Of a stretch of 64,000 nt of DNA, positions 62,068 through 62,556 are shown piece after piece. The stretch comes from Escherichia coli (GTDB taxonomy: Bacteria; Pseudomonadota; Gammaproteobacteria; Enterobacterales; Enterobacteriaceae), in the NCBI RefSeq assembly GCF_022846255.1, contig NZ_AP025682.1; one strand, given 5' to 3'. The notes below the pieces were generated by a model, which was not told where the DNA came from, ran no database searches, and saw nothing but the letters and a program-made list of their open reading frames with translations. How positions within the stretch are numbered: position 1 is the stretch's first letter; every line of letters begins with the position of its first letter. Both the position numbers and the translations under genes were made by a program.

Positions 62068-62556
62068 TTAGTTAACCGCAGCTACGTAGTTTTTCACCAG
62101 ATACGCGAATTCATGCACGCCAATTTCACCGAACCAAACCAGGTAGGCCGGGTCATCTAAACCAAAGTAACGGTAGCCAACAACTTCATGGGTTTTTGGG
62201 TTATAGAGTGTTACGATAAAGTCCCAGCCGCAGGTATTGGCTTTGCAACCGTCGCCCTGGAACCAGACTGTACCGTTAATGTTTACTGGCGTGATACCTC
62301 CACCAGGGCCATCCATATAGCCGCCTTTACCGAACATGCCGCTCAGTCCGACCGGTTTTAATGCTTTGTCGATAGCGGCTTTGTAGGTAGCGTCACCTTC
62401 GTACAACTCGTACGTTGATGGACACGCTCCAGGTTGTTCAGCCCAGGCTTCCGGGTTACAACTAAGAGCTTGTTTTACGGTAGCCGCTTCTGCGTTAAAG
62501 TTAAAGCCCGTGAACAGAACCGCCAGAAATAACATAAGGGTATGTAAACGTTTCAT
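62068..62556 (-). CDS. Secreted (periplasmic) protein with Ivy-like features (C-K-x3-C-G loop)
   Basis: Start placed at the internal ATG that gives the Sec signal MKRLHTLMLFLAVLFTGFNFNAEA; motifs KAAIDKA, KGGY, GCKANTCGWDFIV resemble Ivy KAAFNQM, KGGTY, ACKPHDCGSQRIAV; the same frame stays open upstream to 62859 (track ORF 62068..62859), so the start is uncertain. Confidence 0.6.
   Translation of the reverse strand: MKRLHTLMLFLAVLFTGFNFNAEAATVKQALSCNPEAWAEQPGACPSTYELYEGDATYKAAIDKALKPVGLSGMFGKGGYMDGPGGGITPVNINGTVWFQGDGCKANTCGWDFIVTLYNPKTHEVVGYRYFGLDDPAYLVWFGEIGVHEFAYLVKNYVAAVN

Follow-up and report, generated by a model that had tools for sequence, protein, structure and literature searches.

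A divergent Ivy-type gene on CP4-44-type islands of Escherichia coli, encoding a candidate periplasmic inhibitor of peptidoglycan cleavage

Here we examine a small gene carried by an integrative island of Escherichia coli, beginning with the locus and the encoded protein, setting out how that protein relates to the inhibitor of vertebrate lysozyme, Ivy, and considering what it may do in the cell. The window, by which we mean the whole stretch of DNA analysed, comprises 64,000 nucleotides of contig NZ_AP025682.1 (assembly GCF_022846255.1). Translation of its minus strand gives the 162-amino-acid (aa) open reading frame (ORF) that is our subject, flanked by co-oriented genes for a patatin-like phospholipase upstream and a 136-aa secreted protein downstream (Table 1). 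A first-pass annotation of the same letters had described the product as a secreted protein with an Ivy-like loop, and the strings it quoted are all present, with KAAIDKA at residues 59-65, KGGY at 77-80 and GDGCKANTCGWDFIV at 101-115.

Table 1. Features of the Ivy-like locus, with positions counted from the first letter of the window
Feature	Positions	Strand	Remarks
Terminator-like hairpin at the end of the two-gene unit, upstream of the DUF932 gene	61471-61500	-	Pattern scan; 13-bp stem with 8 GC pairs
Co-oriented gene for a 136-aa secreted protein	61642-62052	-	15 bp downstream of the Ivy-like gene; likely operon partner
Ivy-family gene	62068-62556	-	162 codons plus stop; ATG start at 62556
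Predicted disulfide-stapled hairpin loop, C104-K-A-N-T-C109-G110	62227-62247	-	HMM (hidden Markov model) and hhalign alignment to Ivy CKPHDCG
N-terminal Cys33...Cys45 pair (SCNPEAWAEQPGACP)	62422-62460	-	Subfamily-specific extension, absent from mature E. coli Ivy
Predicted signal peptide, residues 1-24	62485-62556	-	MKR / LHTLMLFLAVLFTGF / NFNAEA, cleavage after AEA; read by eye
Remnant (65 codons, in frame) of a separate gene for a 180-aa secreted protein	62557-62751	-	DNA alignment to the undeleted locus L003
Terminator-like hairpin and T-run after the patatin gene	62851-62867	-	Pattern scan only

The protein opens with MKRLHTLMLFLAVLFTGFNFNAEA, followed after the predicted cleavage site by ATVKQ, and runs through GDGCKANTCGWDFIV to a terminal AAVN. 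Read by eye, its N-terminus has the layout of a Sec-type signal peptide, with a basic n-region, a 15-residue hydrophobic core and an A-x-A motif (AEA) at the predicted cleavage site, and the hydropathy maximum of the whole protein falls at residues 7-17, so the earlier description of the product as secreted holds. The mature protein would be about 138 aa long, and its four cysteines (33, 45, 104 and 109) are predicted to form two disulfides. The gene is clearly real, because the pairwise ratio of nonsynonymous to synonymous divergence (dN/dS) is 0.12-0.22 among intact alleles, over a dS range of 0.23 to ~2, and it is under purifying selection. The bare CK...CG pattern alone is weak evidence, with one occurrence in the six-frame translation and an expectation of 0.24 from shuffles.

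Homology to Ivy is supported indirectly by sequence, through intermediates. Distant relatives were needed for this link because the protein on its own drew no significant match in Pfam, NCBIfam or the Protein Data Bank (PDB): the NCBIfam Ivy equivalog NF007443 scored 11.6 bits (E = 0.19) against a curated cutoff of 180 bits, and phmmer against PDB sequences returned nothing relevant. A profile of eleven E. coli and Shigella alleles placed Ivy only at E = 1, and the sister alleles P0008 (3.9e-4) and P0014 (1.5e-3) have the NCBIfam Ivy model as their sole match. In a phmmer search space of 1.8 billion representative proteins, relatives appeared at E-values of 3e-16 to 1e-10, namely the secreted proteins P0061, P0063, P0065, P0067 and P0069 of about 150 aa, with an N-terminal C-x(n)-C-P-Y segment, a C-[EKQ]-x-H-x-C-[GSAP] loop and an LY.P...G.Y strand as features in common. 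Relatives from Salmonella, Klebsiella and Chromobacteriaceae are named 'Ivy family c-type lysozyme inhibitor' by the Prokaryotic Genome Annotation Pipeline (PGAP). By itself, P0069 matches the structure of E. coli Ivy at 3.6e-5; it also carries PF08816, the Pfam Ivy family, which is matched at E <= 1e-3 by 14 of the 21 family members in the joint alignment. The profile check that had been proposed against Pfam Ivy thus fails for the protein itself and succeeds by way of its relatives. Moreover, the joint family profile (A2) finds the Ivy crystal structures 1GPQ/1XS0 at 2.9e-8, 4PS6 at 3.6e-7 and 1UUZ at 4.4e-7, with the cysteine loop in register with SACKPHDCG.

Structure prediction points the same way. 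An AlphaFold2 model built on the eleven-allele alignment (mean pLDDT 77.9, pTM 0.73) consists of a five-stranded sheet with helices at the N-terminus and one helix at the C-terminus, and is predicted to have the Ivy fold: in a Foldseek search against the PDB, Ivy chains took ranks 1-8, each with a probability of 1.0 and a target-normalised TM of 0.61-0.67, while rank 9 had a probability of 0.11. In the model, loop 105-111 joins strands 96-104 and 112-118, as in the Ivy inhibitory hairpin, and the predicted C-x4-C loop at the beta-hairpin tip would be the counterpart of the Ivy loop. The comparison with Ivy crystal structures called for by the first-pass annotation therefore agrees with the distant relatives and the A2 profile, and its Ivy interpretation is borne out.

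Within the E. coli clade, C104, K105, C109, G110 and W111 are invariant, and the loop matches that of Ivy in length (four residues between the cysteines) and in its conserved lysine after the first cysteine and glycine after the second. C33 and C45 are invariant in alignment A1 and at least 90% conserved in A2; they belong to an N-terminal extension of ~20 residues, and alignments to mature E. coli Ivy start past the Cys33...Cys45 segment. The loop alleles of the E. coli clade are CKANTC, CKANAC, CKAHAC, CKSNAC and CKSDAC, the His-bearing CKAHAC type occurring in only 138 of 5426 genomes, and His is retained in most distant relatives, for which the subfamily consensus is C-E-A-H-N-C-G. The earlier statement that the essential His of the loop is replaced is thus right for the window allele (CKANTC), but needs qualification, given the sister allele CKAHAC and the subfamily consensus.

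The gene is cargo of a CP4-44-type integrative island, where it occupies the variable slot immediately upstream of a DUF932/antirestriction/RadC/CbeA-CbtA module. A 2.4-kb region is identical in many E. coli chromosomes; in SMS-3-5 it lies within a CP4-44-type island beside yeeA/tmaR, in the order GTPase, dynamin-family gene, RdcB-family gene, patatin-like phospholipase, Ivy-like gene, 136-aa ORF, DUF932, antirestriction, yeeS, yeeT, cbeA and cbtA. Complete E. coli genomes carry the gene in 2332 of 5426 cases (~43%), at up to four places per genome, and it is intact in roughly 1,900 of them. Carriers include O157:H7, UTI89 and an O25b:H4-ST131 strain, although the ST131 match covers only 72% of the gene, and almost every listed record gives the matching feature as a 'hypothetical protein'. 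A Salmonella island (L011) and a Klebsiella plasmid (L010) have Ivy-family genes in the same slot, beside DUF932 or DUF905, and homologues were found in only 10 plasmid records. Literature searches turned up no paper on this gene, and none that treats the dynamin/RdcB/patatin cargo as a system. In the same strains, dS is 0.23-0.72 in the Ivy-like coding sequence and 0-0.025 in the adjacent leader remnant; because the former far exceeds the latter, recombination or gene conversion among island copies is suggested. The allele of E. coli 2009C_3689 (L017, 3001-3483) is a mosaic, with window-type ends, a P0008-type middle including CKAHAC, and an internal stop.

Together, the Ivy fold and the predicted disulfide-stapled loop support a previously unrecognised second Ivy-type gene of E. 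coli, a new divergent member of a known family. We put at roughly 0.6 the probability that its product is a divergent Ivy-family protein, exported by Sec to the periplasm and carried as island cargo, that inhibits an enzyme cleaving the glycan strands of peptidoglycan. Sec export would place the mature protein in the periplasm, where the predicted hairpin, stapled by its disulfide, may insert into the active-site cleft of a lysozyme or lytic transglycosylase; binding would block cleavage of peptidoglycan glycan strands, thereby protecting the sacculus. By analogy with characterised Ivy proteins, periplasmic inhibition of a peptidoglycan-cleaving glycosidase is the most likely function. Because the cleft-inserting His is Asn in the predominant allele, the target or affinity probably differs from that of canonical Ivy on hen-egg-white-type lysozyme, and altered or weaker affinity for hen-type lysozyme is to be expected.

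Several observations weigh against this assignment. No Pfam family, PF08816 included, matches the protein even at E <= 10, and PF08816 recognises none of the eleven E. coli-clade alleles at E <= 1e-3 (7 of 11 at E <= 0.1). An hhalign comparison of the clade with a single E. coli Ivy sequence (residues ~34-128 of which are confirmed by PDB alignments) reached a probability of 32%, with the two loops in register. The window allele has CKANTC in place of the CKPHDC loop with its central His. No peptidoglycan hydrolase is a conserved neighbour in the contexts examined, including those of six distant relatives. Additionally, some alleles are pseudogenes (such as L017, with its internal stop) and the surrounding cluster is decaying. 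Finally, the Pseudomonas aeruginosa paralogue IvyP2 is reported to be without lysozyme-inhibiting capacity in vitro (PMC5526577), so an Ivy fold is no guarantee of lysozyme inhibition.

The alternative that survives best, which we nonetheless hold to be unlikely, is that the protein forms a periplasmic shield against foreign wall-degrading enzymes rather than against host lysozyme or housekeeping transglycosylases, acting as an exclusion or immunity factor. Candidate targets would be phage virion-associated lysozymes or transglycosylases, muramidase effectors of type VI secretion systems, or pesticin-like bacteriocins. Its logic would be analogous to that of T4 Spackle, the inhibitor of the gp5 tail lysozyme, which is a precedent for a periplasmic phage-lysozyme inhibitor (PMC7650644). 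Such a role would suit mobile cargo found on CP4-type islands in E. coli and Salmonella, a Klebsiella plasmid and a 222-kb plasmid-like element, with multiple placements per genome, mosaic alleles and N, H or D at the central loop position; furthermore, some distant relatives have as neighbours TIR-domain, methyltransferase or HNH genes of the sort usual in variable or defence regions. However, the protein has no PADLOC or PHROG match, no homologue occurs among 50,697 phage records, and none of its conserved neighbours encodes a toxin or muramidase. Moreover, loop residues 104-111 have a pN/pS (the ratio of nonsynonymous to synonymous differences per site) of 0.16 against ~0.3 elsewhere, by a crude Nei-Gojobori regional estimate that allele recombination limits as a test, arguing against a rapid arms race; since the value lies below that of the rest of the protein, diversifying selection on the loop was rejected, at the resolution of this estimate. 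A defence-system call was also rejected, given the missing matches for the protein itself and only weak PADLOC/PHROG matches for its neighbours (LeoBC-like, LeoA-like and phospholipase-effector). More speculatively, CP4-type islands may spread Ivy-fold periplasmic proteins whose N, H and D loop variants are tuned to foreign peptidoglycan-lytic enzymes, possibly together with the 136-aa partner, a doubtful proposal under which the tuned variants would constitute a new, periplasmic class of exclusion or immunity factor on the Ivy scaffold.

We regard it as improbable that the gene is decaying island cargo without current function. Neighbouring small secreted-protein genes have indeed been eroded by deletions and frameshifts, leaving remnants, the L017 allele is interrupted by an internal stop, and chimeric truncated ORFs are common in databases, but the low dN/dS across alleles with dS up to ~2, the invariance of the four cysteines and core motifs, and the large number of genomes with an intact copy all argue for a maintained protein. 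Some truncated copies in the databases (the P0008 protein cluster; hits H65 and H73, E. coli 95_0274, 770001-770124) bear the name 'DNA polymerase III subunit gamma/tau', an apparent propagated misannotation.

The gene boundaries matter here too, as RefSeq/PGAP annotates a 227-aa ORF from 62751 (WP_000775500.1), whose frame is open without a stop and which is kept in several strains. It is very improbable that this longer ORF is the true product. At locus L003, which carries a sister allele, the order is patatin gene, 180-aa secreted-protein gene (7098-7640), frameshifted remnant of a 131-aa gene and Ivy-like gene, the last with an AAGGA ribosome-binding site and stop codons immediately 5' of MKRLH. 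Relative to this arrangement, DNA alignment finds ~710 bp absent from the window, with the junction near 62562/62563, so that the MKRLH start is now preceded, in the same frame, by the initial ~64 codons of the 180-aa gene. Because this deletion joined two genes, the 227-aa model is, on the DNA alignment, a deletion-fusion artefact. Among strains sharing the fusion, nearly every change in the extension is nonsynonymous (5N:0S and 7N:1S); the dN/dS of the Ivy-like part, by contrast, is 0.13-0.22. Furthermore, in a 227-aa product the second hydrophobic segment, following the first signal peptide, would act as a stop-transfer anchor and leave the disulfide domain in the cytoplasm. The ATG chosen in the first-pass annotation is thus the correct start and that of RefSeq is not, the upstream extension being a fused remnant. 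The fused model has a further consequence: because of it, a 160-aa allele that is intact in another strain (L018) is marked by PGAP as 'incomplete; missing N-terminus'.

That the Ivy-like protein works with or neutralises the adjacent patatin-like phospholipase, a link the first-pass annotation had proposed to check by a binding test, is the least credible proposal and can be set aside: the two genes are neighbouring and co-oriented in the window and in many E. coli genomes, but the Ivy-like gene does not follow directly after the phospholipase gene as first described, 330 bp (from the patatin stop at 62887 to the Ivy-like start) with a terminator-like hairpin and a gene remnant lying between; their adjacency is a by-product of deletion in the cargo region rather than a functional pairing, because the ~710-bp deletion brought them together where L003 has the 180-aa gene and the remnant of another gene in between; L006, L009, L010 and L011 have the Ivy-like gene but no patatin gene; and the patatin protein, having no signal peptide by eye, would occupy a different compartment from the exported Ivy-like protein.

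By pattern scan, the Ivy-like and 136-aa genes probably form a transcription unit of their own, separate from the patatin gene. The 136-aa protein has a signal peptide and four conserved cysteines and matches phrog_8968; it was modelled as an all-beta protein (pLDDT 68), whose top match in the PDB (E = 0.11) is not significant. The same pairing, with gaps of 11-19 bp, is found at the plasmid-like loci L006 and L009 (136-aa gene at 8498-8908 and 9428-9838, respectively) and the island loci L016 and L019, and the 136-aa gene is absent from L003-type islands. The two plasmid-like loci, on a metagenomic scaffold and a 222-kb Enterobacter plasmid, belong to an element quite unlike the island, and there the pair lies within a run of small signal-peptide proteins. 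This run comprises six genes (L006 6598-9309, L009 8034-10238), encoding two YfjT-family proteins, a 131-aa protein, the Ivy-like protein, the 136-aa protein and a 129-aa protein, and looks like the intact ancestral arrangement. An SMC-like ATPase and a transglycosylase with an SLT domain are encoded within ~8 kb of it, on elements made up mostly of hypothetical genes; the SLT-domain gene, ~7 kb off in L006 and L009, was considered as a partner and rejected as too distant, the link being unsupported.

On the other side of the patatin gene, the island cargo extends beyond the window end (L001 14355-19978) and includes a YeeP-like GTPase, a 798-aa dynamin-family protein, an RdcB/YjcZ-family protein and the patatin-like phospholipase. 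The dynamin-family, RdcB/YjcZ-family and patatin genes have overlapping stop and start codons, with the patatin gene (62887-63957) last of the set, and this cargo could represent a membrane-remodelling or defence module, so far uncharacterised, that is paralogous to RdcA/RdcB. In the downstream module, cbtA of the CbtA/CbeA pair (58467-58730, minus strand) is an ORF of only 87 aa, and its annotation is frameshifted in the near-identical SMS-3-5 locus.

Ivy was discovered in E. coli, and the known lysozyme inhibitors Ivy, MliC and PliG are invoked to explain lysozyme tolerance and virulence. Although common in the species, the gene described here scores just too low for Pfam and PGAP to detect, and its RefSeq model is wrong. 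If active, its product could confound the phenotypes of ivy knock-outs and widen the range of inhibited enzymes, and a foreign lytic enzyme as its target would add to its significance. Moreover, the natural N/H/D variation at the cleft-inserting position offers a ready series for studying the role of that residue in target choice. A practical gain lies in annotation, where the 227-aa fusion model misflags intact 160-aa genes as N-terminally truncated pseudogenes.

Known Ivy proteins carry a conserved CKPHDC motif, and Ivy also controls bacterial lytic transglycosylases (PMC3660660); reported targets of the family are C-type lysozyme and P. aeruginosa MltB (PMC3660660, PMC10139938). IvyP2 of P. 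aeruginosa is likewise an Ivy-family paralogue of doubtful standing as a lysozyme inhibitor, but its gene is chromosomal rather than island cargo; it is reported to inhibit MltB (PMC10139938, citing Clarke 2010). The C-terminal part of the island protein is closer to the Pseudomonas type, represented by P. aeruginosa Ivy (Ivyp1, PA3902; 1UUZ, 4PS6). Unlike Ivyp1, a core chromosomal gene product with the loop CKPHDC, the island-borne protein has CKANTC and an extra N-terminal Cys33-Cys45 segment, and identity between the two is ~20%. Compared with E. coli Ivy (YkfE; 1GPQ, 1XS0; NF007443), whose gene is under Rcs regulation and which weakly inhibits MltA/MltB in vitro (PMC10139938), the island protein shares 17-18% identity over structural alignments, has Asn in place of the loop His and adds the N-terminal disulfide extension. 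Closest are the PGAP-named Ivy proteins of the same subfamily, from Salmonella (P0061, 314 aa), Klebsiella plasmids (357 aa) and Chromobacteriaceae (P0069, 153 aa), which are 29-38% identical to the island protein and share with it the N-terminal C-x(n)-C-P-Y segment and the LY.P...G.Y strand; most of them keep the His (CEAHNCG), and those of Salmonella and Klebsiella carry a C-terminal extension of ~160-200 aa that is absent from the island protein.
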